Virus genome (UHGV): UHGV-1449992
Reading direction: 5' to 3' (one strand)
DNA: 26,750 nt
From: a virus
Positions 9,155 to 26,750 of the stretch are shown one piece after another. Positions within the stretch are counted from its first letter, which is position 1, and each line of letters opens with the position of its first letter. Made by a program: the position numbers and the translations under genes. The notes beneath the pieces are model-generated. The model had not been told where the DNA came from, did no database searches, and saw only the letters and a program-made list of their open reading frames with translations.

Positions 9155-9910
9155 ATGTCTAACATTGTCCCCATGAATTATGATGACCATTCATTCCCTT
9201 TTGCTTCTGATTGCTGGTTTAATGCCACAGTTGCTGCAAAGCATCACAGGAAGAGAGTGAAGAACTGGACAATTCTGGAGTCAACAAGGGATTACGTTGT
9301 CGAGTTGGCGCAAGAGCTTGATATTGAACCATTCAATTCTAAAGGGCAGATTTCTACCCTTTTAATTAGGATTGAGAAAGGCCGTTATGGCGGCACATGG
9401 ATGCACCCAGAGTTGGCCGTTGAGTTCGCCCGTTGGTTGTCAGTCAAATTTGCCCGCGCCTGCGACCGCCACATTAAAAATTTGCTGCTGAGTAAAAATT
9501 TTCAGCTCACTGAAGATCAGATTGTCGGCCTCATGGTCTGCCAGCAACCCAGTTCCTGGGAAAAAAGGTTTAAAGACCCGTTCTACCAGGCACTGTCGAA
9601 AATGTCCGGCATTCCTTATTTTGGTCATGTCGGCGGATGTCCGGCGTTGTTCGGTCAGATCACCGCTCGCTGGGTCTACGGTGTAGCACTTCCTGATTAT
9701 GTCTATCAGGCAGCTAAACAGGCAGCCGGCAACAGCAAGGAGAAGATTCATCAGCATCTTAAGCCGGATGCGCTGGAGAAGGTCGAGCAGCAACTGATCG
9801 CCGTCACAAACATTGCCAGTTGCAGCATTGACCAGAAGGACTTTGAGGCCCGTTGCATGGCTGCCTTTCCTGTCAAAGGGCAGATGAAGCTGCTGTATGC
9901 GGCGGCATAA
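9155..9910 (+). CDS. KilA-N domain protein (N-terminal KilA-N DNA-binding domain; C-terminal region possibly P63C-like); accessory gene
   Basis: ATG 9155 preceded by AAGGTAA. N-terminus ...FNATVAAKHHRKRVKNWTILESTRDYVVELAQ...RIEKGRYGGTWMHPELAVEFARWLS has the hallmarks of KilA-N; not a structural gene. Confidence 0.65.
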   Translation: MSNIVPMNYDDHSFPFASDCWFNATVAAKHHRKRVKNWTILESTRDYVVELAQELDIEPFNSKGQISTLLIRIEKGRYGGTWMHPELAVEFARWLSVKFARACDRHIKNLLLSKNFQLTEDQIVGLMVCQQPSSWEKRFKDPFYQALSKMSGIPYFGHVGGCPALFGQITARWVYGVALPDYVYQAAKQAAGNSKEKIHQHLKPDALEKVEQQLIAVTNIASCSIDQKDFEARCMAAFPVKGQMKLLYAAA

Positions 9911-13900: not shown

Positions 13901-14493
13901 TTAAGACGTTGATACAGATGGCAACACAGGCGCTAATCACCAAAGCGATTATGGCGTCGTTCGGCGGTGGGGCTGGTGGAATGTTCGGGAGTCTTCTTGG
14001 CGGAGGTGGGGGAGGTGGCAGCACCGGGACGGCCATTCAGAGCGCTGGTGCTAATCTTTCGTTTAATGCTCTGGGTGGTGTCTACGATTCACCTTCACTT
14101 TCCGCATACAGCGGCGGTGTATACAGCACTCCGCAGTACTTTGCGTTTGCGAAAGGCGCGGGCGTGTTCGGTGAAGCGGGACCCGAAGCGATTATGCCCC
14201 TTACCCGTGGCGCTGACGGTTCGCTGGGGGTTCGTGCGGTTGGACGTGAGTCACCGGCAGTCCAGGATGCTGCAAGGCAGCAGCAGGAAAGACAACTTCT
14301 TTCAACAGGTGATATCAACGTCAATTACCACCTCACAGGTAAACCTGATGATGTGATGATGCAGACAATGGATGCCCACGGTCGCCGCCTGGCTAAACAG
14401 ATTAAATCTGAACTGACGAGCGACGTTAACAATCCTCAAAATGCTTTCGGTAGAGCACTTTACTCCAACCTTCAGCCCAAAAAACCACGATAA
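10912..14493 (+). CDS. Tail tape measure protein
   Basis: 1193-aa ORF, Ala/Gln-rich coiled-coil-like body, Gly-rich stretch near the C-terminus; position after G/T. Confidence 0.9.
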   Translation: MATLRELIIKVSANSQSFQTEIARASRMGQDYYKTMQNGGRQAAAAAKESQKALSELTDGFASAGRAATIAAAAFATGKLVQIADQWNSVNARLKQASVSTNDFTLSQTRLMAISQSTGTAFTDNANLFSRAAASMREFGYSSDEVLKITEAVSTGLKLSGASTEEAGSVITQFSQALAQGVLRGEEFNVVNEAGDRVIRALAAGMGVARKDLKAMADQGQLTIDKVVPALISQLGVLQGEFSSLPPTVSGSMQKVTNSFMAWVGGVNQATGATDALSGGLDGLAGTLDSLTSSAVSGALSDVADNMSLITTAAGGLVGIGLARYLGGIVTSASSATGALISAAKSEVALAVAQEKAAQSSVAASRAAVYRAQQALQSAKSADVQAAQQERVAAAEAKVTAAQGRLTTALATGTATEKVRARTALERAQAGLVAAKNADAQAIAERKLATAQAALSRNISGRVSAQNNLNSVTSVGTRLMSGALGLVGGIPGLVMLGAGAWYAMYQSQEQARKSAQEYASQIDQIREKTSSMTLPEVDSNRRLSVEAMQEQKRLIEEQERSVKSLNGQIKDLNESRNKPGITQENDLNITKAIAILTEQIVVEEDKLRQMREKASDILKAQEEQERRRNDLIKDRAWRQNAEYQNLVMMTGKYSEVNRLLGLGNQLLMERQGLVNVPMRMPQADLTSQQTAALEKSRRDLDLSTRKGEDKERTRLGYVADDLGLKDEPQFQTGRQEIINNGIKEWKNNEANKPTRKAPKSEELKAAEKTEDVYKRLIKQQEEQIALGSQNTELAKVKYQVTQGELASLEQAKKEIILQNAALIDQKNIAEQLKTFREGLADSNAAARDRGNIDFLGAGMGDKARDRMKEMADIRTDFLKQQRDLQRDFSKGQISEDLYKQQTEALQAALTERLQIQEDYYKKTDEQQSDWRAGISDSLMNYADQAADLSSMAATATSEILDATTNSISNNLTSVLTGATSFKDGMSNIFSSLGETVIKTLIQMATQALITKAIMASFGGGAGGMFGSLLGGGGGGGSTGTAIQSAGANLSFNALGGVYDSPSLSAYSGGVYSTPQYFAFAKGAGVFGEAGPEAIMPLTRGADGSLGVRAVGRESPAVQDAARQQQERQLLSTGDINVNYHLTGKPDDVMMQTMDAHGRRLAKQIKSELTSDVNNPQNAFGRALYSNLQPKKPR

Positions 14494-14513
14494 CCTGCCC
14501 GGAGGGAAAGTTA

Positions 14514-14987
14514 ATGGCGGATATTATCTATCCGGATGAGTACCTGCCTATGCCGCTGATGGACGGGTACGGTTTTAAGCCCATATCACCGATACTGCGA
14601 ACGGAGATGACGTCCGGTCGCGCTCAGCAGCGAAGGCGATACACCTCAACACCGACCCAGGCATCAGTTAAATGGATTTTTAAAACTGATGCGCTGGCGC
14701 AGGTATTTGAGGCTTTTTTCAGGGATGCGCTTAAAGATGGTCAGTCATGGTTCTATCTGAAACTCCAGACCCCCATCGGGGTAAAGCCCTATAAAGCCAG
14801 GTTCGTGGATATTTACGAAGGGCCGACGCTGGTCGCGCCAAAATACTGGCAGTACAGCGCAACGCTGGAATTATGGGAACGACCGTTACCGCCGGTTGGA
14901 TGGGGAAATTACCCGGAATGGCTCGCTGGTCAGTCGTTACTGGATATTGCGCTAAACAAAGAGTGGCCGAAGCATGACAATTCTTGA
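14514..14987 (+). CDS. Minor (distal) tail protein
   Basis: 157-aa ORF directly after the tape measure; synteny with distal tail/baseplate genes; family not determined. Confidence 0.55.
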   Translation: MADIIYPDEYLPMPLMDGYGFKPISPILRTEMTSGRAQQRRRYTSTPTQASVKWIFKTDALAQVFEAFFRDALKDGQSWFYLKLQTPIGVKPYKARFVDIYEGPTLVAPKYWQYSATLELWERPLPPVGWGNYPEWLAGQSLLDIALNKEWPKHDNS

Positions 14988-15450
14988 GCGGCTATATGCC
15001 AGCAGCGGTTCGGAGGTTATCCACGACACGCTGCAGATATCGGCTGGCGATGATAACTACTGGTTAACCAGCGGCTGGGATGACGTTTCCGTAACGTTGG
15101 AAAATGGTCAGCCGGCGACGTTTGAAGCCTGCGCGATAGAAATTGCACTGCCAGCGCGAAATGCGGACGGAACGCAGGATCTGAAATTCGCCCTGAGTAA
15201 TATTGACGGTGTCGTTTCTGGAGCCATCGATAAAGTTCTGGATGAAATGAAATCAGCCACGCTGACATTCCGGCGGTACATTTCATCAGATCTGTCTTCC
15301 CCGGCATCATCACCGTATACGCTCGATATCAAATCCGGCTCATGGACCCCGACAGCAGTGCAGGTCACGGCGGGCTATATGAATGTCCTCAAAACAGCCT
15401 GGCCCCGTAAACGTTACAACCTCGCCGAGCATCCGGGCTTACGTTACTAA
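14974..15450 (+). CDS. Minor (distal) tail protein
   Basis: 158-aa ORF overlapping the previous gene by 14 nt; synteny. Confidence 0.55.
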   Translation: MTILERLYASSGSEVIHDTLQISAGDDNYWLTSGWDDVSVTLENGQPATFEACAIEIALPARNADGTQDLKFALSNIDGVVSGAIDKVLDEMKSATLTFRRYISSDLSSPASSPYTLDIKSGSWTPTAVQVTAGYMNVLKTAWPRKRYNLAEHPGLRY

Positions 15451-15462
15451 CCTGAGGCAAAT

Positions 15463-15843
15463 ATGTTTAATCCTGATAAATACCGTTCAGTCAGCTGGCT
15501 GAAAGGCGGTCGCGTATACCCGCTACTCGACTGCTTCGGCATTGTGAATGAAATCCGGCGCGATCTGAAATTACCCCTCTGGCCCGATTTCGCCGGAGTG
15601 ACCAAAGACGGGGGAGGCCTCGACCGGGAGGCGAGAAGGTTGATGCTTTCCCTGCAACGCTGCGAGCCCTGCGAAGGGGCTGGCGTGGCCTGCTATTCCG
15701 GCTCAACGGTTACCCATGTCGGGATCGTTGTCATGCTCGATAACCAGCTGCAGGTCGCGGAATGTAATCCAGGCTCGGGGGTTACGTTTCTGCCACTGGC
15801 GCGATTCATACGACGGTTTAACCGCGTGGAGTTCTGGCAATGA
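15463..15843 (+). CDS. NlpC/P60 (C40 peptidase)-like tail protein
   Basis: 126-aa ORF with candidate Cys...His catalytic pair (LDCFGIV ... THVGIVV) in papain-like spacing; position equivalent to lambda gpK-type proteins. Confidence 0.6.
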   Translation: MFNPDKYRSVSWLKGGRVYPLLDCFGIVNEIRRDLKLPLWPDFAGVTKDGGGLDREARRLMLSLQRCEPCEGAGVACYSGSTVTHVGIVVMLDNQLQVAECNPGSGVTFLPLARFIRRFNRVEFWQ

Positions 15844-18800
15844 CGATAAAGTTTTTTCCGTCCCGGTTGCCGGGTGAACCCCTGGAGACGCACGAACATG
15901 GCGCGATGACCCTGCATGAGTGGATGGCCAGGAATGTCCCGAGCTACTCGCAGGACAGAAAGCATCCTGTTGCGGTCGAACTGGACGGCCGGGCTGTTCC
16001 ACCTGCGGAATGGCCACTATGTTTGCTGCGGCCAGACAGCGATGTGCGGATTTACCCGATCCCGTATGGAACCGGCCTGGAAATCGCCGTGTGGGTATCG
16101 GTTGCCGTATCTATTGCCTCTACGGCCTATGCGCTGTTTTTCGCCCCGAAACCAGAGCTGGGCGGGTTTTCGTCAGGCAATTCAGCATCACTGGACCTGA
16201 ACCCGGCAAAAGCGAATACAGCTAAGCTTGGCGATCCTGTTCGTGAGGTATTCGGAAGAAACAGAATTTATCCGGATTACCTGGTGCAGCCGGTCACTCG
16301 CTTTGACCCCAATGATCCCACCCGGATGACGGTCGAAATGTTTGTCTGCCTCGGGTATGGACGTTTCTCTTATACCGGCGGTGATTTTCGGGTGGGTGAA
16401 ACTCCTGCTCTGCCGTTAGGCGATGGCTTTTCTTATACCAGCTATGGGCCGGGCGATAACGTGGCGGGGGACCGTCGCAGCGAGGTCTGGTTCAACAGTA
16501 CAGAAGTTGGCGGGACATCAAGCGGGTCAGGTCTGGATATGGCTCAGACTGCCCCTGAAGCCAGTGATATCGTTGCTGATGCCATGACTGTTAGCGGTGC
16601 ATCTGTTTCGTTTTCAGGTCTCGATGTCGATGATGACAACGATGATGATGAAGATGAGAACAAGCTGCCTCCTGGCTGGATTGAGGGTGCAATTGTCACT
16701 CTGAAAGCGCCAGTGAATTATCAGGTATCCATCGAGGGCGGTTTTAACGTGCTGACAGGAGACGTCGTGTCAGAGATTGCGCCATTCAGTGGAATGCCTG
16801 TCACCCTAACGTTTAACGGTACTGACTATGACCTGCAGATCGCCACGTATACCCCTCACCAGGACGCCGTTCCGGGAACAGGGGGAGCGACTGCGGTATT
16901 ACGCGCCAGTGCGTCGCCGTCAACGTATGACTTTACGACAACCAGCCAGACCTTTGCTCTGACCTGGCAGGGTATCACCTATACCATATCTCTGGTCGCC
17001 AACTACGGCACAATGTCTGGCTTGCTCGCAGCGATTAATGGCGGGTTGAATGGTTCGGGGCTCATTGCTCAGGATGATGGCGGCGTGATACGTATCGTCG
17101 AGATCTCCAGCCCCTGGCGTGGCGGCTCCATTACGTCATCTTTCCTGCCGGCGTCAGTATTTGGTGACGGCCCGGTATTTACTGCTGGTGCAGCCTCCAG
17201 CGGCGGAAGCCCTGCGGTAACAGCCAGCATCACGCTGGCATACGATTCTGGCACTGCCTTTTCCGGATTGCCGGAAGGAACCCAGCGGATTTCCCTGGCG
17301 CATCGTGGCAACGAATACCAGATAGCGTCTACTGATGGCCCCTCTGCGACCGTACAGCGTGTGGTTAACGGTGTCATCGACAGCACCTGGTCAGGCTTTA
17401 TGACCCGTACCGTCGTGGATTTTGCCGCGTCTGGTATTAACGATAATGAAACCTGGCTAGGCCCCTTTCTGGCCTGCCCGCAAAATGAAGTTGTGGACGC
17501 CTTCGAGGTCAACTTTGCTTTCCCAAACGGAATTTGCGGGTTCCAGAACAACGGGAATAAGCGGGTCCGCCATGTCGAGTATGAAATCCAGTATCGCGTT
17601 TATGGTTCCGGTTCAGGGTGGACGAGTAAGCCAGGGGTTTACGCGCTTAAAAACATTAATGGCCTCGGTTTTACAGAGCGTTTTGATCTGTCCTCTCCCG
17701 GGCTGGTGGAGGTTCGATGCCGCCGCCGTAACGAGCAGGGGAGCAACAACGCGAGAGACAGCATGTTCTGGCAGGCGCTCAGAGGTCGTTTGCTTTCCCG
17801 TCCAACCTCCTACGCAGGGATATCAACAATAGGGATCACGGTTGAAACCGGCGGCCAGCTGGCGGCGCAGTCAGACAAGCGTGTGAGTGTTGTCGCCACG
17901 CGAAACTATGATGGCGGTGGTGACAGGACAATCAGCGGTGCGTTCCTGCATCTTGCCCGCAGTCTGGGATATCGCGACGACCAGATCGACATTGCGGGGC
18001 TCAGTACGCTGGAGGCCACCTACTGGACGCCACGAGGCGAGTATTTTGACCATCAGGCAAGCAGTGACAGCACGTCCGCAAAGGATATTTTCGACAAGAT
18101 TGCTGAAGCAGGCATGGGGTATTTTCTGCTGTCTGACGGCTTACTTTCCGTCGGGCGTGAAGGGGTCAAAAGCTGGACCGGAATCATCACCCCCCAGGAT
18201 ACTGTCGAGGAAATGCAGACATCATTCAGGGTGCCTTCGGAGGACGATTTTGATGGTGTGGATGTGAAATACATCAATCCCGTGACCTGGGCGGAGGAGA
18301 CCGTACAGTGCCGGACGCCTGAAAATCCGTTCCCCCGGAAAACGGAGGCTTACACCATCGATGTCGTCATGACTGCGGATCGTGCCTGGCGTATCGGGAT
18401 GCGCCGGTTAATGAAATATCTCCATCAACGCCGGACGTATACGGCTACAACTGCAATGCTGGGATGGTGCCATGATTTTGGTGACCACATCATTTTGTCA
18501 GATGATATTCGAACCGGGAAAACCCAAAGTTGCCTGATTGACGCAATGACATACGACTTTCAGGAAATAACGCTACATGTCACCGAGCCTCTGGACTGGA
18601 GCTATACAAATCCCCGGTGCTGGATACTGTTTCAGAACAGTCGTCCATCGTCACGGATGCTGACGCCGCAGCGGATAGATGATTTCACTCTTACCATACC
18701 TTACAACGACGATCTGCACCCGGAAGACTGGATTATGGACGACCCTGATATTGATCCACCGCGTTTGCTGTTCTGCGACAGTGAAAAAGGTGCCCGGCAT

Positions 18801-18917
18801 GGGATAGTCCAGGAGGTTGCCCCATCCGGTGAAAGCAACTGTCAGATTACCGCGCCGGAATATAAAGAAATTTTCTACGCCTACGACGACGCCACATACC
18901 CCGGCGACGTCGCTTAA
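15840..18917 (+). CDS. Tail tip / host-specificity protein (J-like, TipJ-type); N-terminal hydrophobic segment suggests a fused gpI-like portion
   Basis: 1025-aa ORF with 4-nt overlap to the upstream gene; size and position match a central tail fibre/tip protein. Confidence 0.75.
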   Translation: MTIKFFPSRLPGEPLETHEHGAMTLHEWMARNVPSYSQDRKHPVAVELDGRAVPPAEWPLCLLRPDSDVRIYPIPYGTGLEIAVWVSVAVSIASTAYALFFAPKPELGGFSSGNSASLDLNPAKANTAKLGDPVREVFGRNRIYPDYLVQPVTRFDPNDPTRMTVEMFVCLGYGRFSYTGGDFRVGETPALPLGDGFSYTSYGPGDNVAGDRRSEVWFNSTEVGGTSSGSGLDMAQTAPEASDIVADAMTVSGASVSFSGLDVDDDNDDDEDENKLPPGWIEGAIVTLKAPVNYQVSIEGGFNVLTGDVVSEIAPFSGMPVTLTFNGTDYDLQIATYTPHQDAVPGTGGATAVLRASASPSTYDFTTTSQTFALTWQGITYTISLVANYGTMSGLLAAINGGLNGSGLIAQDDGGVIRIVEISSPWRGGSITSSFLPASVFGDGPVFTAGAASSGGSPAVTASITLAYDSGTAFSGLPEGTQRISLAHRGNEYQIASTDGPSATVQRVVNGVIDSTWSGFMTRTVVDFAASGINDNETWLGPFLACPQNEVVDAFEVNFAFPNGICGFQNNGNKRVRHVEYEIQYRVYGSGSGWTSKPGVYALKNINGLGFTERFDLSSPGLVEVRCRRRNEQGSNNARDSMFWQALRGRLLSRPTSYAGISTIGITVETGGQLAAQSDKRVSVVATRNYDGGGDRTISGAFLHLARSLGYRDDQIDIAGLSTLEATYWTPRGEYFDHQASSDSTSAKDIFDKIAEAGMGYFLLSDGLLSVGREGVKSWTGIITPQDTVEEMQTSFRVPSEDDFDGVDVKYINPVTWAEETVQCRTPENPFPRKTEAYTIDVVMTADRAWRIGMRRLMKYLHQRRTYTATTAMLGWCHDFGDHIILSDDIRTGKTQSCLIDAMTYDFQEITLHVTEPLDWSYTNPRCWILFQNSRPSSRMLTPQRIDDFTLTIPYNDDLHPEDWIMDDPDIDPPRLLFCDSEKGARHGIVQEVAPSGESNCQITAPEYKEIFYAYDDATYPGDVA

Positions 18918-18946
18918 TACCCCATAAAAATCCCTTATTAACTCTT

Positions 18947-18972
18947 TTCGCTCAAACCCTCGTTTGCGCGAA
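18947..18972. other. 26-bp near-palindrome resembling a Hin/Gin/Cin/Pin-family invertase crossover site (left copy)
   Basis: TTCGCTCAAACC-CT-CGTTTGCGCGAA; half-sites match each other at 10 of 12 positions and fit the hix/gix pattern TTnTCnnAAACC-NN-GGTTTnnGAnAA as recalled from memory. An identical copy in inverted orientation lies at 26716-26741. Confidence 0.45.
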
Positions 18973-19300
18973 CGCCTTTTTTGGAGCAAAAAACATGGCC
19001 TTTAACCCGGAGCTGGGGAGCACGTCTCCCGCTGTTCTGCTCGATAACGCCGAGCGCCTGGATAAGCTAGTGAATGGTGATGTGCTGACCGAACCGGACC
19101 GCGCGGGCGTTGATCTGGATACTTGGCGCGGAATGATGGCGAAAAACGATGAGGTTAGGAAAAACCTGATCCCATTGAGTAAGCAATACATGACGATTGA
19201 GGCGGCGCAGGCTGATATCGCGAATATTCCAGAGGGGTCAACGACCTATGTGAGAAGCCCAGGCAATATAGCCCTGGCATTTGAAGTTATTAATAATGGG
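18947..19300. repeat. Left arm of an inverted repeat (leader plus 5' roughly 300 nt of the tail fibre gene)
   Basis: Leader 18947-18997 is identical to the reverse complement of 26692-26741 apart from a 1-nt A-run indel; the coding part is about 80% identical at nucleotide level. Confidence 0.8.
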
Positions 19301-22300
19301 GGAGTGCTTGAACCTACATGGCGAGCAATGCCGTCGCAGGCTTATGTAGATTTTACTTTATCCAGCGCGGGACAACTGCCTTCAGCGATAATGACCCGTG
19401 ACGAAATATACGCTTCGGTCGAGAGATACGGGCAGTGGACTCGTACTGATACCAACGGATGGGCTGTCGGAGTCAAATCCAGTGGTAAGCCAGTGAACAG
19501 CCTGGCGCTGTGGCTGAATAACCTTTCTGAAATCAGCACGCTTTCTGTTTCTGTTTATCACCGCACTGTTGACGGTTTTTCAGTTCTGCCGGGCGCCGCT
19601 ACAGACAAGCTAATGAGTAGCCAGTCGGTCGCATCTGAAGACGTAGCGATAACTCAAGCACTGGCGCAAGGGTATCAGTTAGTCAGGCTCACCGTGCCTG
19701 ATGTACTGCTTAAATCTGATGAAATCATTCTGTTCGTCGTTAAAGCGCTCGATGCTTCAGGCGCTCCAGTTTATCTGGGGTGTGGCCGGGCGCCGGTTGA
19801 ATCAGGACAGGTTTCTGATTTAAATAACTCTCTGGGCGGTTTCTGGCTTGATGTCGCCCAGACAGCATGGAAGACAGTTACCTCATCTGACAGTCTGTAC
19901 CGGCTGGCTTACAGGGTCGGCTATTTCAGTACGGCAGCCAATAATTACTCGGCCTTTGCTCTCTCCCGTAGTGTTGTGCAGGAGGTTGTGGGAAACAGCT
20001 CAAATTATGCGACGGGCACGACCTTGTCAGGGCGATTTTATGGCTGGGCACTTGGTTTCAAATCTGTGCCAGGGGCGTTCGATATGATCACCCTTTACCA
20101 TAACAACCTCGATGCGGTGGCATATATTGATTACAGGATTGTTCTGCGCGAATTGACTTACGGTACTGCTGCGCAGCCTCTCGGCACTATCGCAACGGAC
20201 AGAGAGGTATTCTCATCACGTAAACTTCCACCGCCGCAGGGGAATAGCCTTTTCACCGCTGTTGATTACCCAGTTCCTGAACTTGTGGTACCCGCAGGAT
20301 ATTTTGCTGCAATAGAACTGCACCCGCTGCAGTGGAACGGCGATACGGCGGACATGGGATGCCAGGCTCATAACTATGCAGGGGAGACATTGCCAACCGA
20401 TATTGGCAGAGGCTATTTTGTCAATCGTAATGATAACGTATGGCGCGTAATATCAGATTCTACTAATGGACTCGCGTATGCACTTGCTCTTGCCGAGTGG
20501 GGAGGCATCCCTCAGGGGGTTGAAAAAGCACAGGGTGAAATCTCGACGCTGAATTCACTAGTTGTTCAGACCAGCCAGACCGTTGCGGAAATGAATACCT
20601 ATGAGATGGAAACGTCTTTTGAAAAAGCATCAGATAATCTTCAGTGGTCCTATGCATCTATGGTTGAATCTGCTCGATTCTGGCGGTGGGCGGTGCCAGT
20701 TTCTGCAGAAGCATCTGAGTTAAAATCCATCGCCATGTGGCTTGATGGCGTATCTCTTAATACCATTCTTCAATGCGACGTTTATTTCCGGCTGACATCA
20801 AACCAGACCAATACATCGGGACCGGGAGCTGTATCTGGTGACATTCTGGCCTTGACAGCAAATGTCACGCCGTTGCCAGCTAATACAGCGATGACAAAAA
20901 TCACGCTCCCGGTAGACCGTCTGACGGTACCGGCTGGTTATTTCCCGATCGTGGCTGTGACCGCATATTACAGTGCTGGCGTGAGCGGAAATCTGGGGTC
21001 AGGCTCGAAATCCTACAGCGCTGGTGATAATCCGGCTACGTACCTCAAGGGCTGGTACCAACGTTTTGACCGCACCGGTTGGCAGACTATCCCTGCGGGG
21101 ACATATGCCGCTGTCGCTGTCAGTGCTGTACTTGTCACCGCTCAGGATCTGCAGGAGAAAATTGCGTCTCTTGAATCCGGTTCTGATGTAACCGCCGATT
21201 ATTCCGGGGACAGCATCGATCGCTATGCACCGCAGGTAGCGGCTACTGGATTAACAGCCGTCATTACTGGTAACGCCATTCTCCGCGGGTCAGCAAAACC
21301 TATATCGGGGACGCTGACATTTGATGCGACAACGGTTGGTAGCACGACTGTCGCCAGCAGTCTTGTGCAGGCATCAGCGGCAGCACAATGGCCATCTAAC
21401 CCTAATGCCTGGTTGGGCGAGAAGCGCATCAGCGCAGTGACCGTAACCAATACTGCAACGAGCACACCGTTAACACCAGGGATGCACTATAACGTTGACA
21501 GCTACGGCGGGAAGCTGAGAGGACTGACGGCAACCACCTACGCTGTCAGTGTGACGTTTACGTACACGCGCGAGCGTTACGACCTGATTCAGATTGACCC
21601 GACGTCACTCGCACTGTCAGTGAAAAAAGGGATGGAACGGGCATTTGACGTTCAGGAATATCGTCCCGCGCCTGATGCCGGAAAAGTCGCGCTTTATTAC
21701 GTTCTGGTCGCCGGAAGCACGCTCGAATTCGATCCGGTTCACCGTTATGTAGACCTTGGCGGCGAGATGCTGGATGGCAAGGATTATGGCTTGCTGCGGC
21801 AGCACAACCGGCGCTTCCTTCAGAAAACGCTGGCGCGCCTGAATCGTGGTCAGGCGATTACGCTGGTAGGGCACGGAGACTCAATCACCGCAGTGTCTAA
21901 TATCAACAGCCCGGCGACGACACCGAACGGAACAACGCGTGACCTGCAGAGGTTTTTGCAGGGAGGCTATGGCAGCGACACACTGACGAACTTGTATCCC
22001 GCGCAGGACTGGGGGGATGGCGGTGGTGCTGTTCATGTCAGTATCGGCTGGAACCGGGTGCTGAAGAAGCATTTTGAAGATGTTTACGGGTCAGAAGTGA
22101 CGTATTACAACTTCGGAATGTCGGGGACGACCTCGGCATCTGGTGCGGGTTCAGACCGTCTCGGCGCGATTACCGCGCTTTCACCGCACCTGACGGTTGT
22201 CGGGTTCGGTATGAACGATAACGCGGGAAGTACGCTGTACGGAAACCTGATGACCATCATCAGCACGCTGAAAGCTGCGGGTTCTGAGGTTGTTCTGATG

Positions 22301-22555
22301 CCGGTGCCGCGCACGTCAAATACCGAAGACGGACGCTATACCCAGGACCAGACCCGGTATATGAACCGGCAGATATACAGAGCCGCGATTGACGGAGGCG
22401 CAGCATACGCACCGGCGGACTGGCTGACGGACGACAACAGCAAGGGAGGCATGGGCATTGCCACCACCTCTCTTACTGGCTCAGACCTGCGCAACCATCC
22501 GGGCGGATACGAAATGAGCATCTACGGAAAGGCGCTGGTTAATGTGTTCTGCTGA
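18995..22555 (+). CDS. Tail fibre/spike protein A: conserved N-terminal anchor domain, central body, C-terminal SGNH/GDSL-type hydrolase (esterase) domain
   Basis: 1186-aa ORF with GGAG ribosome-binding site. C-terminal motifs LVGHGDSITAV (GDS block), VVGFGMNDNAG (GxND block) and SDLRNHPGG (Asp/His block) are in SGNH order. Confidence 0.8.
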   Translation: MAFNPELGSTSPAVLLDNAERLDKLVNGDVLTEPDRAGVDLDTWRGMMAKNDEVRKNLIPLSKQYMTIEAAQADIANIPEGSTTYVRSPGNIALAFEVINNGGVLEPTWRAMPSQAYVDFTLSSAGQLPSAIMTRDEIYASVERYGQWTRTDTNGWAVGVKSSGKPVNSLALWLNNLSEISTLSVSVYHRTVDGFSVLPGAATDKLMSSQSVASEDVAITQALAQGYQLVRLTVPDVLLKSDEIILFVVKALDASGAPVYLGCGRAPVESGQVSDLNNSLGGFWLDVAQTAWKTVTSSDSLYRLAYRVGYFSTAANNYSAFALSRSVVQEVVGNSSNYATGTTLSGRFYGWALGFKSVPGAFDMITLYHNNLDAVAYIDYRIVLRELTYGTAAQPLGTIATDREVFSSRKLPPPQGNSLFTAVDYPVPELVVPAGYFAAIELHPLQWNGDTADMGCQAHNYAGETLPTDIGRGYFVNRNDNVWRVISDSTNGLAYALALAEWGGIPQGVEKAQGEISTLNSLVVQTSQTVAEMNTYEMETSFEKASDNLQWSYASMVESARFWRWAVPVSAEASELKSIAMWLDGVSLNTILQCDVYFRLTSNQTNTSGPGAVSGDILALTANVTPLPANTAMTKITLPVDRLTVPAGYFPIVAVTAYYSAGVSGNLGSGSKSYSAGDNPATYLKGWYQRFDRTGWQTIPAGTYAAVAVSAVLVTAQDLQEKIASLESGSDVTADYSGDSIDRYAPQVAATGLTAVITGNAILRGSAKPISGTLTFDATTVGSTTVASSLVQASAAAQWPSNPNAWLGEKRISAVTVTNTATSTPLTPGMHYNVDSYGGKLRGLTATTYAVSVTFTYTRERYDLIQIDPTSLALSVKKGMERAFDVQEYRPAPDAGKVALYYVLVAGSTLEFDPVHRYVDLGGEMLDGKDYGLLRQHNRRFLQKTLARLNRGQAITLVGHGDSITAVSNINSPATTPNGTTRDLQRFLQGGYGSDTLTNLYPAQDWGDGGGAVHVSIGWNRVLKKHFEDVYGSEVTYYNFGMSGTTSASGAGSDRLGAITALSPHLTVVGFGMNDNAGSTLYGNLMTIISTLKAAGSEVVLMPVPRTSNTEDGRYTQDQTRYMNRQIYRAAIDGGAAYAPADWLTDDNSKGGMGIATTSLTGSDLRNHPGGYEMSIYGKALVNVFC

Positions 22556-22573
22556 TTCATTTCATTAACAAAA

Positions 22574-22608
22574 CATTGCGGCTGTCAATTCTCATGACAG
22601 CCGCAATG
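22574..22608. terminator. Bidirectional terminator hairpin between the convergent fibre genes
   Basis: Perfect 14-bp stem CATTGCGGCTGTCA / TGACAGCCGCAATG with 7-nt loop, flanked by A/T-rich sequence on both sides. Confidence 0.6.
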
Positions 22609-22614
22609 ACCTTA

Positions 22615-25600
22615 TTAAAGACACGCTTTCCAGCAGTACAGACCTCCGTGATCGTATGTCGATGCGCCGTTACCCAGACCTTCATACAAATCGGAACGGT
22701 CAAAGGAAAGCATAAAAAGCTCCGTTTCATCTCCATTAGTGAACGGGACCAGCGTGCACCATGGCCCCGTTGTGTTCGGAGCCAGATACACATCCTGCAC
22801 AAATTCCCCCAGGAAGGTCAGACCTGCCTCATACTTGCGCAGATGCAGTCGGTTGGCCGTTCCTCCGCTTGTCAGGTAGGTTGTCTCGCCGAAATGAACG
22901 AACTGATTCCCGGTATCGCGCACGCCAGCAGGGACTTCTGCCGTCGTATATTCCGGCACAATACCGTCGTACAGCGTCGGGCTCCGGAAGGTTTTGCATC
23001 CACTGGAGATGGTGTTTCCCGTCATCACCCACTGGCTGCTCGACGTTTCATAGTAGAAATCAATATCCTCCACGTAGCTTGCCCCGATCCCGAAAAAACT
23101 GCCGTTGGCGTTCTTCAGTTGCACGGAGTTTCTGACGATGATCACGCCGCCCTGCAGCAAGTCCTGTTTCGTCTCAAAGTACAGTTTTGGTCGATTGTTA
23201 TCGGCCAGCCCTTTCCCCTGATAGTCCATACCGCAAGAGATGCCCTTCCAGCTCTGACTGTTCCGGTCATACACCGCCTTGATACTGTCATCACCCAGCA
23301 CGACATCCTCATCGGTTCCGTCAGTCCGAACCTGGAAAATCGCGCCCACCATCTGCACTTCACCGCTGTTGAAGTTGATACGGACTATCTGAGTGTACAG
23401 GTCGGAGATAGTGGTCCCTGTTCCCTCAACGAGAAAATAAAGCCAGTTACCGCGCTGAATAAACGTCCCGTCTTCATAGGTCAGAAAGCGAATGGAGACG
23501 GAATTCGCCCCGCTGGCAATTCGGTTTGAAAAACCACTAAAGACAGCAATATCACTGGCCGAATATGCATCCGTTTGTGCGAACACGTACGTTTTCCACG
23601 TGTCCAGGTATTCCAGCCTGCGGGCATCAAAGATGGCATAGTGCTCATAGCGGCCAATCCATTTCCACGTCCCGTCAGCGTTCACTTTTTTTAGCAGCAG
23701 TGACACCCCGGTATTCTGCACCTGAAGCACTGCGCCGGTCATATCCGAACCGGTGAACGTGGTGGTATCAAGCAGACTCCCTGCGGCGTAGATTTCACAG
23801 ATAACCTGGCTGTTCGAGACGCGGACCGAAACACTGTTCTGCTGGTCAACATCCGCGAACATTATCCCCATCGTGGCATTGCCTGCCAGCCTGTCGATCG
23901 CGATCTCACTGGTTGCAAAGGGCATATAGCGATCCGCGAACATCACCACCCGGCCATTTGCTGTCGGGTTACGGAAAGAGACCTTTCCTGCTGACCAGGA
24001 ATAAGCAAACACATTCCCGGCGGTGATATCGTAAATATTGCTCTGCAGATTCCAGGGATTGTTTTCCAGGTCCATAAAAGAGAGCATGAACGAGTCAGCG
24101 GCATTGTAAAAATCGCGACGCGCCCACTGCTTAGTGAAAGTGTATTCCAGAGGGTTGCTGAAACTGTCGAAGTCAGGCGTCTTTTCAGGCAGCCCGGATA
24201 AATCGACATGGTAAGGCGCGTTAAAAACTTTTGCTTTTACCTGACTGCTCCGCGAGGACTGCTCAATCATGGCGGATACGTCATTGAATCTGGCGACCTG
24301 ATTGGAATAAATCTTCCTGACGGCGTATACGGGATCGGTTGTTTTTCTGACGCGCACCGCAACGTAACCGTCCTGTGTGGCCACTCCGCGATACGTTGCC
24401 GTCACATATCCGCCGCCCGATTTGAAGGTGAAGAGGTCCGACACCCACCCCTTGTCCGCGTCACATTGCATGATATAGGCGATAAGTTCTCCGACGGTGG
24501 CGGAGCCGTACTGCCCGTACATCTCGACAGAGTCGCCTTTTCGCACCGGGATGTAATACATCCGCCAGACACTGTAAGCAGAGCCGGAGACGATATTACC
24601 GCCGCTGTACATTACTGAGTTATCAGCAATGACTGATGCCACGCTGGTATAATCGATGGTTTTTACCGGCCCTCTGAGGTCTGATGCAAAAGCTTTATCC
24701 TGAGACGTCCGTGTTATGGTTGCCGCGGGTGTGGTGACGCGTACGCGCACGTAAACGAAACCATCCTGGGTTGCCACGCCGGCCATTACGCCGTTACTGG
24801 TGACACCCGGTGATGTGTAAGTGGCAAGATTAGCCACCACCGCCATTGCCGCATCCAGCTGAATGATATAAGCAATAACTTCGCCTGCCGTGCCGGAGCC
24901 GATTTGCCCGAAATAGCGCACGATATCCCCCGCGCGAACAGGAACATACGCTGCTTTCCAGTTCTCACCTGCGGTGTCAGAAATCATTCCGCCTGAGTAT
25001 ATAACCCGCCCCGTGATAGTGTATGTATCCGGTGCACTGGTCACGTCCAGGGTTGTTCTGTTAGCCGCAGCAATATCGGCCGGGTTCATTACAGCGTATA
25101 CGTTGCCGGGCAGGGAAAACAGTTGAGTGGTCTTTGTAATGGTTGCTGCCGGATCAGTCACACGCACCCGGACATAAACAAAACCATCCTGTGTGGCGAC
25201 ACCAGTCATAACACCAGCGCTGGACGAACCGGGCGAAGTATAGGTGGCGAGTGGCGCCACAAATTTCATCGCACTGTCGAGCTGGATGATATAAGCCAGT
25301 ACCTGGCCCGAAGTGCCGGAGCCGATTTGGCCGTGATACTGAATAACCTCTCCTGCTTTCACGGGCAGATAAGCTGCTTTCCAGCTATCTCCTGCGTTGT
25401 CCACCACCGAACCATCCGCTGACATGACACGCCCGATAATATATGTGGTGGTTGAAGCATTAGTGACATCCGTAGTCACGCGGTTGGCCGCATTCACAGA
25501 CGTTACAGTTTTGACGCCGAATACATCTGCGCCGGGTGTGAACCGCTCTCTGCTCTGATAAATCGCCGCTTCCGGCGTGGTCACCCGCACACGGAAGTAA

Positions 25601-26694
25601 GCGAAACCGTCCTGGGTTGCCACGCCCGATAAAACACCTGTCTTTTGGACTCCTTCCGACGAATAAGTCACCAGATTCCCCACCACATTAAGGCTGGTGT
25701 CGAGCTGAATTATGTACGCCATCAGCTCGCCGGGAATAGCGCTACCAATCTCACCGTGATATTCGAGAGCATCCCCCTTTTTTACGGGAACGTAAGCAGC
25801 ACGCCATGACTCCCCGGCGGAATCTGTGCGGGTACCATCGGCATAAATCACCCGCCCGATCACCCATGCAGTACTTTGAGATGAGGTAATATCAACAAGC
25901 GGTTTATTCGCCAGTACGTTCTGATAACTGGCATAGCTTGCTACCCCTCCGGCGGCATCAATATCTGCCTCCACCAGAATTGTTTTTTTGCGCTGCGTCA
26001 GGGTGAATTCTGCCGTATCCCTCACCCGGACGTAAATATACCCGTCCTGAGTCGCAACTGCTGACAGAGTGGCTTTATCCGTTACGTTCCCGGTTGATGT
26101 CCACTCAGCCAGAGATGCCACGAATGCTTTGTTGGCGTCCAGCTGGATAAGATACGCTATCTGTTCGCCAGCAGTGTTAGAGCCCACTGTTCCGCTATAG
26201 GTGACGCTCTCGCCCGCCCTGACTTTCAGATACCAGGCATTCCATGTAGGACTCGATGCAGTAGAGCCATCAGCATATATCACCAGTCCGGCAACAATTT
26301 CCGCATCGCTTTTAGCATCCCCTGTTATGTAGCCCGTTTTCAGAGCGCTCATCGACGGCATAGCTCTGCCGGTAGCTGCCAGTGTGCCACCGTTATTAAT
26401 GTACTCATCCGCCAGTGTGCCGCCATCAGGGCTGCGTACATAGGTTGTTGAGCCATCCGGGATGTTTGCAATATCAGCCTGAGCCGCTTCAATCGTCATG
26501 TACTGCTTACTCAATGGCACAAGGTTCTGACGAATCTCGTCATTTTTCGCCATGAATCCGCGCCAGGTATCCAGATCAACACCCGCGCGATCAGGCACGG
26601 TGAAAGCGTCCGAATTCACCAGGTTATCCAGGCGCTCAGCGTTATCGCGCAGAACCGCCGGAGAAGCACTCCCCAGAGGAGGATTAAAGGCCAT
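22615..26694 (-). CDS. Tail fibre/spike protein B: same N-terminal anchor domain as protein A, five tandem copies of a roughly 140-aa domain, distinct roughly 570-aa C-terminal module
   Basis: Probable start at the ATG complementary to 26692-26694 (MAFNPPLGSASPAVL...), with the same leader as gene A; the six-frame ORF extends 10 codons further to 26724. First 110 aa are about 75% identical to protein A. Confidence 0.8.
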   Translation of the reverse strand: MAFNPPLGSASPAVLRDNAERLDNLVNSDAFTVPDRAGVDLDTWRGFMAKNDEIRQNLVPLSKQYMTIEAAQADIANIPDGSTTYVRSPDGGTLADEYINNGGTLAATGRAMPSMSALKTGYITGDAKSDAEIVAGLVIYADGSTASSPTWNAWYLKVRAGESVTYSGTVGSNTAGEQIAYLIQLDANKAFVASLAEWTSTGNVTDKATLSAVATQDGYIYVRVRDTAEFTLTQRKKTILVEADIDAAGGVASYASYQNVLANKPLVDITSSQSTAWVIGRVIYADGTRTDSAGESWRAAYVPVKKGDALEYHGEIGSAIPGELMAYIIQLDTSLNVVGNLVTYSSEGVQKTGVLSGVATQDGFAYFRVRVTTPEAAIYQSRERFTPGADVFGVKTVTSVNAANRVTTDVTNASTTTYIIGRVMSADGSVVDNAGDSWKAAYLPVKAGEVIQYHGQIGSGTSGQVLAYIIQLDSAMKFVAPLATYTSPGSSSAGVMTGVATQDGFVYVRVRVTDPAATITKTTQLFSLPGNVYAVMNPADIAAANRTTLDVTSAPDTYTITGRVIYSGGMISDTAGENWKAAYVPVRAGDIVRYFGQIGSGTAGEVIAYIIQLDAAMAVVANLATYTSPGVTSNGVMAGVATQDGFVYVRVRVTTPAATITRTSQDKAFASDLRGPVKTIDYTSVASVIADNSVMYSGGNIVSGSAYSVWRMYYIPVRKGDSVEMYGQYGSATVGELIAYIMQCDADKGWVSDLFTFKSGGGYVTATYRGVATQDGYVAVRVRKTTDPVYAVRKIYSNQVARFNDVSAMIEQSSRSSQVKAKVFNAPYHVDLSGLPEKTPDFDSFSNPLEYTFTKQWARRDFYNAADSFMLSFMDLENNPWNLQSNIYDITAGNVFAYSWSAGKVSFRNPTANGRVVMFADRYMPFATSEIAIDRLAGNATMGIMFADVDQQNSVSVRVSNSQVICEIYAAGSLLDTTTFTGSDMTGAVLQVQNTGVSLLLKKVNADGTWKWIGRYEHYAIFDARRLEYLDTWKTYVFAQTDAYSASDIAVFSGFSNRIASGANSVSIRFLTYEDGTFIQRGNWLYFLVEGTGTTISDLYTQIVRINFNSGEVQMVGAIFQVRTDGTDEDVVLGDDSIKAVYDRNSQSWKGISCGMDYQGKGLADNNRPKLYFETKQDLLQGGVIIVRNSVQLKNANGSFFGIGASYVEDIDFYYETSSSQWVMTGNTISSGCKTFRSPTLYDGIVPEYTTAEVPAGVRDTGNQFVHFGETTYLTSGGTANRLHLRKYEAGLTFLGEFVQDVYLAPNTTGPWCTLVPFTNGDETELFMLSFDRSDLYEGLGNGASTYDHGGLYCWKACL
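24325..26340 (-). repeat. Intragenic tandem repeat: five copies, period about 393-435 nt, each encoding a domain ending in the motif VATQDG(F/Y)xYxRVR(V/K)T
   Basis: Repeat-end codons map to about 26016, 25581, 25158, 24735 and 24342 on the minus strand; the DNA copies are recognisably similar (e.g. GTCACCCGCACACGGAAGTAAGCGAAACCGTCCTG versus GTGACGCGTACGCGCACGTAAACGAAACCATCCTG). Confidence 0.75.
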
Positions 26695-26741
26695 GTTTTT
26701 GCTCCAAAAAAGGCGTTCGCGCAAACGAGGGTTTGAGCGAA
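26390..26741. repeat. Right arm of the inverted repeat (leader plus 5' end of fibre gene B)
   Basis: Reverse complement matches 18947-19300 (identical leader, about 80% identical coding part). Confidence 0.8.
26716..26741. other. 26-bp hix/gix-like near-palindrome (right copy, inverted relative to 18947-18972)
   Basis: TTCGCGCAAACG-AG-GGTTTGAGCGAA is the exact reverse complement of the left copy. Confidence 0.45.
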
Positions 26742-26750
26742 AGACCGGAG

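Follow-up and report, generated by a model that had tools for sequence, protein, structure and literature searches.

The closest described relatives of the locus treated here are the phage inversion systems Mu G/Gin, P1 C/Cin, e14 P/Pin and p15B Min. In Mu, a myovirus with slender fibres, the left boundary of the invertible segment lies inside the tail-fibre gene S (record position 31966, gene start 31458, at about codon 170), and a constant N-terminal part is joined to alternative C-termini. Salmonella Hin flips a promoter with its own gene relative to fixed genes. A consensus for Din sites has been tabulated for hix, gix, cix, pix and mix (PMC3241671), and an enhancer site inside gin is credited to Kahmann et al. 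1985 in a passage of PMC3798978. A preprint describes invertases and inverted neighbours near receptor-binding protein (RBP) genes in P2-like phages.

The host range of Klebsiella phages is set largely by capsule- and O-antigen-specific tailspikes, and prophage RBPs are mined as a means of predicting and engineering specificity. Klebsiella phages with more than one RBP exist. Those of the KP32 type, which are multi-depolymerase phages, encode several polysaccharide-specific RBPs per genome on modular N-terminal anchors, and these RBPs are co-expressed and co-mounted via different anchor or adaptor domains. In contrast, the locus described below has the same anchor on both RBPs, and their genes are convergent and would be alternated by DNA inversion.

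We analysed a window of 26,750 nt (virus genome UHGV-1449992), which corresponds to nt 1-26750 of the 36,597-nt (36.6 kb) contig NODE_112 of ENA ERZ1742253. The window comes from a lambdoid siphovirus prophage of Klebsiella, and its region 18946-26742 is very probably a host-range cassette that can be inverted. The recombinase, the type of site, the position of the genes and the outcome (alternative host range) place the cassette with the Mu, P1, e14 and p15B systems. Unlike Mu, it exchanges whole genes and has two copies of the anchor (78% identical, dN/dS 0.1); it also differs from Mu in its phage type (a lambdoid siphovirus with a J-like tip) and in its cargo, which consists of large enzymatic RBPs (SGNH esterase, beta-helix, lectin/propeller).

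Gene order, crossover sites and invertase

Pfam, PHROG and NCBIfam searches identify the window as the structural half of a lambdoid siphovirus prophage, with genes in the order terminase, portal, protease, capsid, tail genes, tape measure (1193 aa), three small tip proteins and a 1025-aa J-like protein. The last of these matches Pfam FNIII-A_GpJ and Phage-tail_3, PHROG 469 (tail protein, E 1e-273) and a TipJ-related NCBIfam model (E 1e-138). Downstream of J lie two large convergent ORFs, A and B. The chromosomal neighbours of the prophage are umuDC, a DUF3413-sulfatase gene and rplY. The features of the cassette and its surroundings are as follows.

15840..18917, plus strand: J-like tip attachment/central fibre gene, the last fixed tail-operon gene before the switch
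18946..26742, no strand: invertible segment with its two repeats, 7797 nt in all and about 7769 nt between the cores, from L084 against L082
18946..18992, plus strand: left 47-nt perfect inverted repeat in the J-A leader, 100% complementary to 26696-26742
18947..18972, plus strand: left crossover site, core CT at 18959-18960; fits the Din consensus, with the inversion breakpoints here
18983..18997, plus strand: GGAG Shine-Dalgarno sequence and start codon ATG of A, both within the part that inverts (read from the sequence)
18995..22555, plus strand: receptor-binding protein A, ORF of 1186 aa; J-proximal, presumed ON in the window
18995..19345, plus strand: N-terminal anchor domain of A, residues 1-117 (BLASTP, residue count, AF2 model)
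22574..22608, no strand: hairpin with a 14-bp stem between the convergent stops of A and B, T-run on the B side; terminator-like (L081 13580-13614)
22615..26694, minus strand: receptor-binding protein B, ORF of 1359 aa; invertase-proximal, presumed OFF in the window
26344..26694, minus strand: N-terminal anchor domain of B, residues 1-117 (BLASTP, residue count)
26696..26742, minus strand: right 47-nt perfect inverted repeat, 100% match to the left repeat
26716..26741, minus strand: right crossover site, the same 26-mer, core at 26728-26729; in register with Mu gixR
26733..26750, plus strand: start of the invertase control region, with a -35-like TTGAGC in the outer half-site; promoter-like (L081 17739-17767)
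Contig nt 26815-26874 (L081 17821-17880), outside the window: invertase codons 11-30 (nt 31-90), with suppressed synonymous variation

Each repeat contains the 26-bp site TTCGCTCAAACC-CT-CGTTTGCGCGAA, in which two imperfectly symmetrical 12-bp halves surround a 2-bp core. All 14 specified half-site positions of the 26-mers agree with the Din consensus TTC----AAAC / GTTT----GAA, and the two crossover sites are the window's only matches to the consensus pattern, against 0.01 expected. As in the Din family, two 26-bp sites thus stand in inverted orientation with an identical non-palindromic core, although this core is CT/AG whereas the Din sites listed in PMC3241671, Mu's included, have AA or GA. 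The 47 nt upstream are 100% identical between the two arms, versus 79.5% nucleotide identity between the two coding copies of the anchor; at 80% per site, a run of 47 consecutive matches has a chance of about 3e-5. In Mu G and P1 C the crossover falls inside a tail-fibre ORF, whereas here the core dinucleotide of both sites lies 35 nt ahead of the ATG, in the 5′ leader of each gene. A palindrome with a T-run in the leader was considered as a terminator and rejected: its stem is only about 4 bp, it is the recombination site itself, and a terminator scan calls nothing there.

The invertase gene (contig 26785-27336, 183 aa) starts 43 nt beyond the right site and 35 nt past the window end. It lies outside the segment and reads away from it. 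Its product has the size (about 180-195 aa) and the arrangement, a catalytic domain with a C-terminal HTH, of a Din-family small serine recombinase: Pfam finds Resolvase and HTH_7, and the N-terminus, MLIGYARVSTGDQ, contains the catalytic-serine motif, for which the family pattern is YxRVST with Ser9/10. Identity to Mu Gin is 66% across 180 aa, ungapped, and phmmer matches the Gin structures 4m6f and 3uj3 at E ~1e-71. The likeness to Mu extends to the layout, with two inverted 26-bp Din-consensus sites, an invertase just outside one of them and reading away, and convergent sets of tail-fibre genes; the right site and gixR align in register and lie at similar distances from the ATGs of their invertases. 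Hin shares the recombinase family and the site type, and in both systems a complete gene is joined or not joined to a fixed source of transcription. The arrangement is otherwise the reverse of Hin's, since promoter-less genes are flipped here relative to a fixed upstream operon and the invertase is outside the segment.

The outer half of the right site supplies the -35-like element of a promoter-like sequence for the invertase, TTGAGC-17-TACAAT, whose -10 element TACAAT lies beyond the window end; it is kept in 20 distinct upstream regions. Within the gene, among 20 distinct sequences, codons 11-30 show synonymous differences of 0.12 versus 0.35 overall, and 0 of 5000 permutations gave a value as low. 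The suggestion of an overlapping cis-element, possibly a recombinational enhancer, comes from this dip in synonymous variation between related genes. Inspection by eye of the 5′ region of the invertase gene for two Fis sites at a spacing of 48 bp turned up no convincing pair.

Some observations concern the operon and its records rather than the switch. A gene with KilA-N and P63C domains (window 9155-9910, plus strand; Pfam labels taken from L081 161-916) is found in the tail operon, after the tail chaperone region and before the tape measure, and the related phage ST147-VIM1phi7.2 has an IS21 element at the same spot, which may be an insertion hotspot. Misnomers have spread in public phage records: the J-like protein appears as a 'kinase', the 126-aa tip protein as a 'nitrite transporter' and the RBPs as 'flagellar biosynthesis protein'. 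The best relatives in the phage database (L001 and L002) are prophage records that end inside the first RBP gene, and no context was gained from them; the record of Kp4871-1 (L003) has no annotation and gave no invertase match.

Proteins A and B, their anchor and their expression

An earlier note on this DNA held that A and B share about 110 N-terminal residues and then diverge completely, and alignment bears this out on both counts. BLASTP gives E 9e-50, wholly from the N-termini, where 91 of 117 residues (77.8%) are identical by residue count, and the similarity is not confined to low-complexity sequence. Past about residue 117 no BLASTP alignment beats chance. The note placed the feature at 18995-19300, which lies in A's copy, and left out that of B (26344-26694, minus strand); it also missed an extension of the repeat 49 nt upstream of both ATGs. 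Identity varies by section, at 85% over residues 1-88, 96% over 61-88 and 55% over 89-117. Across codons 1-88 dS is about 1.0 and dN/dS about 0.10, so the anchor copies are old and under purifying selection rather than the product of a recent duplication. A longer, TTG-started ORF of B reaching 26724 is needless, as the ATG at 26694 serves.

At least 12 PHROG families, with lengths of 263-1280 aa, begin with the anchor domain. This domain occurs in 462 database proteins, mostly from Klebsiella, under names that include beta-helix, SGNH and 'flagellar biosynthesis', and in tail-fibre genes of 88 phage records, lytic Klebsiella siphoviruses among them. In its AlphaFold (AF2) model (pLDDT 78), residues 12-57 form a helix-hairpin-helix and residues 63-112 a small unit of the alpha/beta type. 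A Foldseek search of PDB ranked five chains of 9occ highest (G, I, J, K and L), that is, residues 4-59 of the tailspike gp13 of the Shigella siphophage Sf11. Residues ~1-57 of the anchor match gp13 with probability 1.0, 29-32% identity and an rmsd of 1.5-2.1 across 50-55 columns, and with a TM-score of 0.72-0.77 normalised to the target; the match is short, and its best Foldseek E-value is only 7e-3. In the model, then, the first ~55 residues form a helical segment with the gp13 fold, at that pLDDT and E-value. The similarity to gp13 is below HMMER or BLAST detection at the sequence level, the anchor alignment had no HMMER match among PDB sequences, and Foldseek against PDB found no solved counterpart for the second half, residues 63-117.

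In Sf11, the gp13 helices fix an enzymatic tailspike to a siphovirus tail tip, as the anchor would here; cryo-EM shows them in a bundle to which gp17, the distal tail protein, contributes an adaptor helix, and the tip bears six tailspike trimers (PDB 9occ; PMC12724387). By this analogy, the model supports a role of the N-terminal domain as a tail anchor and points to a partner of the distal-tail type rather than J. The earlier note proposed a check of its docking on the J-like protein (15840..18917), for which we found no support; the sole experimental analogue, Sf11, docks on the distal tail protein. In Sf11 the distal tail protein has 457 aa, and docking is on its long C-terminal extension, whereas the protein after the tape measure here, in the distal-tail-protein position, has only 157 aa, so the anchor's partner may differ. 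The candidates are J and the tip proteins of 157, 158 and 126 aa at 14514..14987, 14974..15450 and 15463..15843.

Beyond the anchor, A has an SGNH/GDSL domain at residues ~1014-1148 (Pfam), and its residues 913-1094 fall in PHROG tail-fibre family 8460. B has five repeats of ~140 aa between residues ~125 and 800, seen in the protein and as a 38-nt family in the DNA, although Tandem Repeats Finder did not detect them at the DNA level. A model of B's C-terminal 570 aa (pLDDT 76, pTM 0.77) looks like a jelly roll of the CBM66 type with a propeller-like domain after it; whole-model matches, at low TM, were to lectin-plus-propeller sialidases and botulinum toxin binding domains. Pfam matched neither A's middle parts nor B's C-terminal part and gave only sub-threshold matches for the repeats of B, NCBIfam gave none for either protein, and HMMER found no PDB sequence matching full-length A or B. 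It is plausible that the variable parts make A and B glycan-directed RBPs. The two distinct host-recognition modules that the note had foreseen can accordingly be named, an SGNH/GDSL esterase in A and repeats with a lectin-like jelly roll and a beta-propeller-like domain in B.

For B's C-terminal 570 aa (window 22618-24327, minus strand), the closest non-Klebsiella homologues are 45-51% identical over 79-92% of the query, and two of them bear the names Leuconostoc suionicum and Liquorilactobacillus ghanensis. To judge by sequence, this part looks like a receptor-binding module shared across phyla.

The note had also proposed a common attachment domain with one of the proteins, or a mixture, mounted on the tail. 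The shared domain does behave as an attachment module; the choice, which the note read as a matter of protein architecture, has to be sought elsewhere, because A and B are the two arms of an invertible segment and in each genome it would be the inversion of the DNA, rather than competition for an attachment site, that sets 'one or the other'. With the crossover ahead of both start codons, each arm has to carry its own copy of the anchor, which explains the shared N-terminus.

A scan of the J-A leader (crude sigma-70 consensus for promoters) found no promoter-like or terminator-like site. With the same crude consensus, which weak promoters or those of other types would escape, none was found reading into the invertase-proximal gene, so that gene is presumably silent. 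A TTGACA reading toward B is taken as coincidental: it falls in the invertase's codons for the conserved catalytic motif, and the scan shows no promoter there.

We propose that the invertase binds both sites, cuts at the central CT/AG and rotates the ~7.8-kb segment (7.77 kb core to core), and that this may depend on Fis and on an enhancer in nt 31-90 of the invertase gene. The late transcript would run from J through the 77-nt leader into whichever RBP gene faces it and end near the 14-bp-stem hairpin at 22574-22608. Only the J-proximal gene would then be made with the virion proteins, and the other, facing the invertase side, would be silent. A lysogen population would release two types of virion differing in glycan specificity, one carrying A with its SGNH esterase and the other B with its repeats and lectin/propeller-like module.

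The strongest competitor to this proposal is that A and B are both made in every cell, B from a promoter of its own, and mounted at the same attachment site, with inversion incidental. Both genes are intact and have the same Shine-Dalgarno sequence and leader, the anchor is common to A and B, multi-RBP Klebsiella phages exist, and six tailspike trimers per tail, if Sf11 is a guide, would make mixed occupancy physically possible. We nevertheless think it improbable. To judge by sequence signals, the two genes would not both be expressed from the structural operon, since they are convergent with a hairpin between them and only one follows J. No promoter-like element reads into the invertase-proximal gene, whose ATG is only ~90 nt from the divergent ATG of the invertase, 47 nt of this being repeat. 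Moreover, a conserved invertase and consensus sites placed to swap genes behind J would be purposeless if both genes were always expressed.

Both orientations in natural prophages

An exact-protein look-up of A retrieved assemblies with near-identical copies of the prophage, all at the same chromosomal locus. The order of J followed by A, then B reversed, then the outward-reading invertase was found in L081, L084, L085, L087 and L088; J is followed by B, with A reversed, in L082, L083 and L086. Compared across assemblies, the two orientations thus occur with reciprocal junctions, as in Din-family systems. The four junctions are exactly reciprocal, the outer flanks remaining with J or the invertase and the inner sequence with the gene, and the spacer after the Shine-Dalgarno sequence travels with its gene in both orientations (six A residues before gene A and five before B). 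When L084 is compared with L082, the 7797 nt that correspond to window 18946-26742 match at 100% in one orientation, and the flanks on both sides match at ~99.1% in the opposite one. Breakpoints are resolved to anywhere within the 47-nt identical block.

The 4 kb of flanking sequence sort some of these prophages into two haplotypes, each with 0 mismatches internally: X comprises L081 (A-on), L083 (B-on) and L087 (A-on), and Y comprises L082 (B-on) and L084 (A-on). X and Y are 1 SNP apart. As each is found A-on as well as B-on, at least two flips must have happened independently.

A rival reading, in which RecA now and then recombines the two inverted repeats (~400 bp) and the invertase is unrelated or inactive, would account for the breakpoints falling in the longest identical stretch (47 nt), where homologous exchange is favoured. 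We judge it very unlikely. A stretch of 47 nt is a very short substrate, the block holds a full Din site with a core that is invariant across elements whose J C-termini are ~52% identical, an intact Gin homologue lies at the canonical distance, and none of the eight assemblies compared has a chimeric N-terminus. In addition, at least two flips among prophages 0-1 SNP apart in 4 kb argue for a high rate. That the orientations are mis-assemblies across the inverted repeat is scarcely tenable: contigs often break at the repeat (L089 and L034 are the segment alone) and most N-terminal homologues are 'partial' at contig ends, but both orientations are present in 5.8-6.0 Mb contigs (L082, L084) as well as in metagenomes assembled independently, a perfect repeat of just 47 nt, with 79% identity in the remainder, is easily spanned, and the junction sequences are clean and reciprocal. 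Enzymatic inversion by the Gin-like invertase is the reading that we retain.

Two whole contigs, L089 (GCA_052208295.1, 7701 nt) and L034 (IMG/VR, 6145 nt), consist of the segment alone and end at the repeat edges, and the anchor homologues in databases are mostly 'partial' proteins at contig ends. Both observations fit frequent assembly breaks at the repeat, and neither is counted as proof.

Related cassettes and the host range of Klebsiella prophages

The exact 26-mer was found in 76 IMG/VR stretches. At every locus with readable flanks, either a J-like gene stops ~30 nt ahead of it or a divergent invertase gene begins 43 nt beyond it, and wherever the RBP start codon is readable the distance to it is 46-50 nt. 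The J C-termini of the elements that bear it are only ~52% identical. Because these loci were found by exact match to the 26-mer, conservation of the site among them is partly by construction. We also checked independent sites, namely the second sites in the same loci and those in phage records found via J or anchor similarity; sites found independently of the exact 26-mer vary at non-consensus positions only. The core is CT in 108/108 related sites. Eight RBP types occur both J-proximal and invertase-proximal, and among the cargo of related cassettes are esterases (SGNH and SASA) and beta-helix (pectate-lyase-like) tailspikes that come in pairs. The arms of some relatives have a second gene downstream of the RBP, resembling the S-U / S′-U′ pairs of Mu.

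KPP5665-2, an inducible, plaque-forming siphovirus, has the complete cassette, from J through two arms with RBPs to a gene annotated as 'DNA invertase'. Its two sites carry the same variant, whereas the adjacent leaders are different. Its genome announcement makes no mention of a switch.

Among GTDB species representatives the site is confined to Klebsiella and Raoultella, plus one likely contaminant contig. A 1095-nt record labelled Streptomyces (L095, NZ_JBFBIU010000098.1) has a Klebsiella-type site and the anchor, and the anchor is also found in proteins labelled Streptomyces and Veillonella (P0083 and P0022). These records are most likely due to contamination or mis-binning.

Five relatives (L078, L004, L030, L053 and L054) have one site and a truncated invertase. 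L078 (3640-8308), for example, has J, a single B-type RBP of 1359 aa in the J-proximal position, the truncated invertase and one site. These are decayed versions of the switch, which is therefore not universally maintained. In L021 (IMGVR_UViG_2671180876_000001; 7797 and 14490-14700) the second site is inverted, and what comes after it is not an invertase gene but part of a J C-terminus in reverse, 94% identical to residues 250-300; going by the sequence, this could be an inversion between the sites of two prophages, or two tail-to-tail prophages.

A full-text literature search found no description of a whole-RBP inversion switch in Klebsiella; PMC10918111 was considered as an earlier description and set aside, as 'inversion' is used there in an unrelated sense. 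The locus shows that Din invertases can run whole-gene cassette exchange besides the classical intragenic exchange of C-termini. As a layout of the classic phage switch of host range it is new; its practical interest lies in predicting and engineering the host range of Klebsiella phages, and conceptually it is no surprise. We raise, tentatively and as the less favoured of the ways to class it, the idea that it represents an undescribed class of host-range switch, common in lambdoid prophages of Klebsiella and Raoultella, in which a Din invertase swaps whole promoter-less RBP genes (depolymerase/esterase tailspikes) behind a fixed tail operon via a shared 5′ leader.

If so, the leader would be at once a recombination site, a translation leader and, at the right end, an invertase operator, and half of the RBP repertoire of such prophages would be silent at any time. 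Prediction of capsule type from prophage RBPs would need the orientation, and identical sites in co-resident prophages could drive inter-prophage RBP exchange or chromosomal inversions, of which L021 gives a hint. For the prophage described here, the switch accounts for two unrelated tail proteins keeping a duplicated N-terminus, and flipping is frequent enough to differ between prophages 0-1 SNP apart in 4 kb. The anchor, leader and 26-bp site together make a natural plug-in point for RBP swaps. One lysogen could release two phage types, and genome-based associations of RBP with serotype would be confounded unless the orientation is read.
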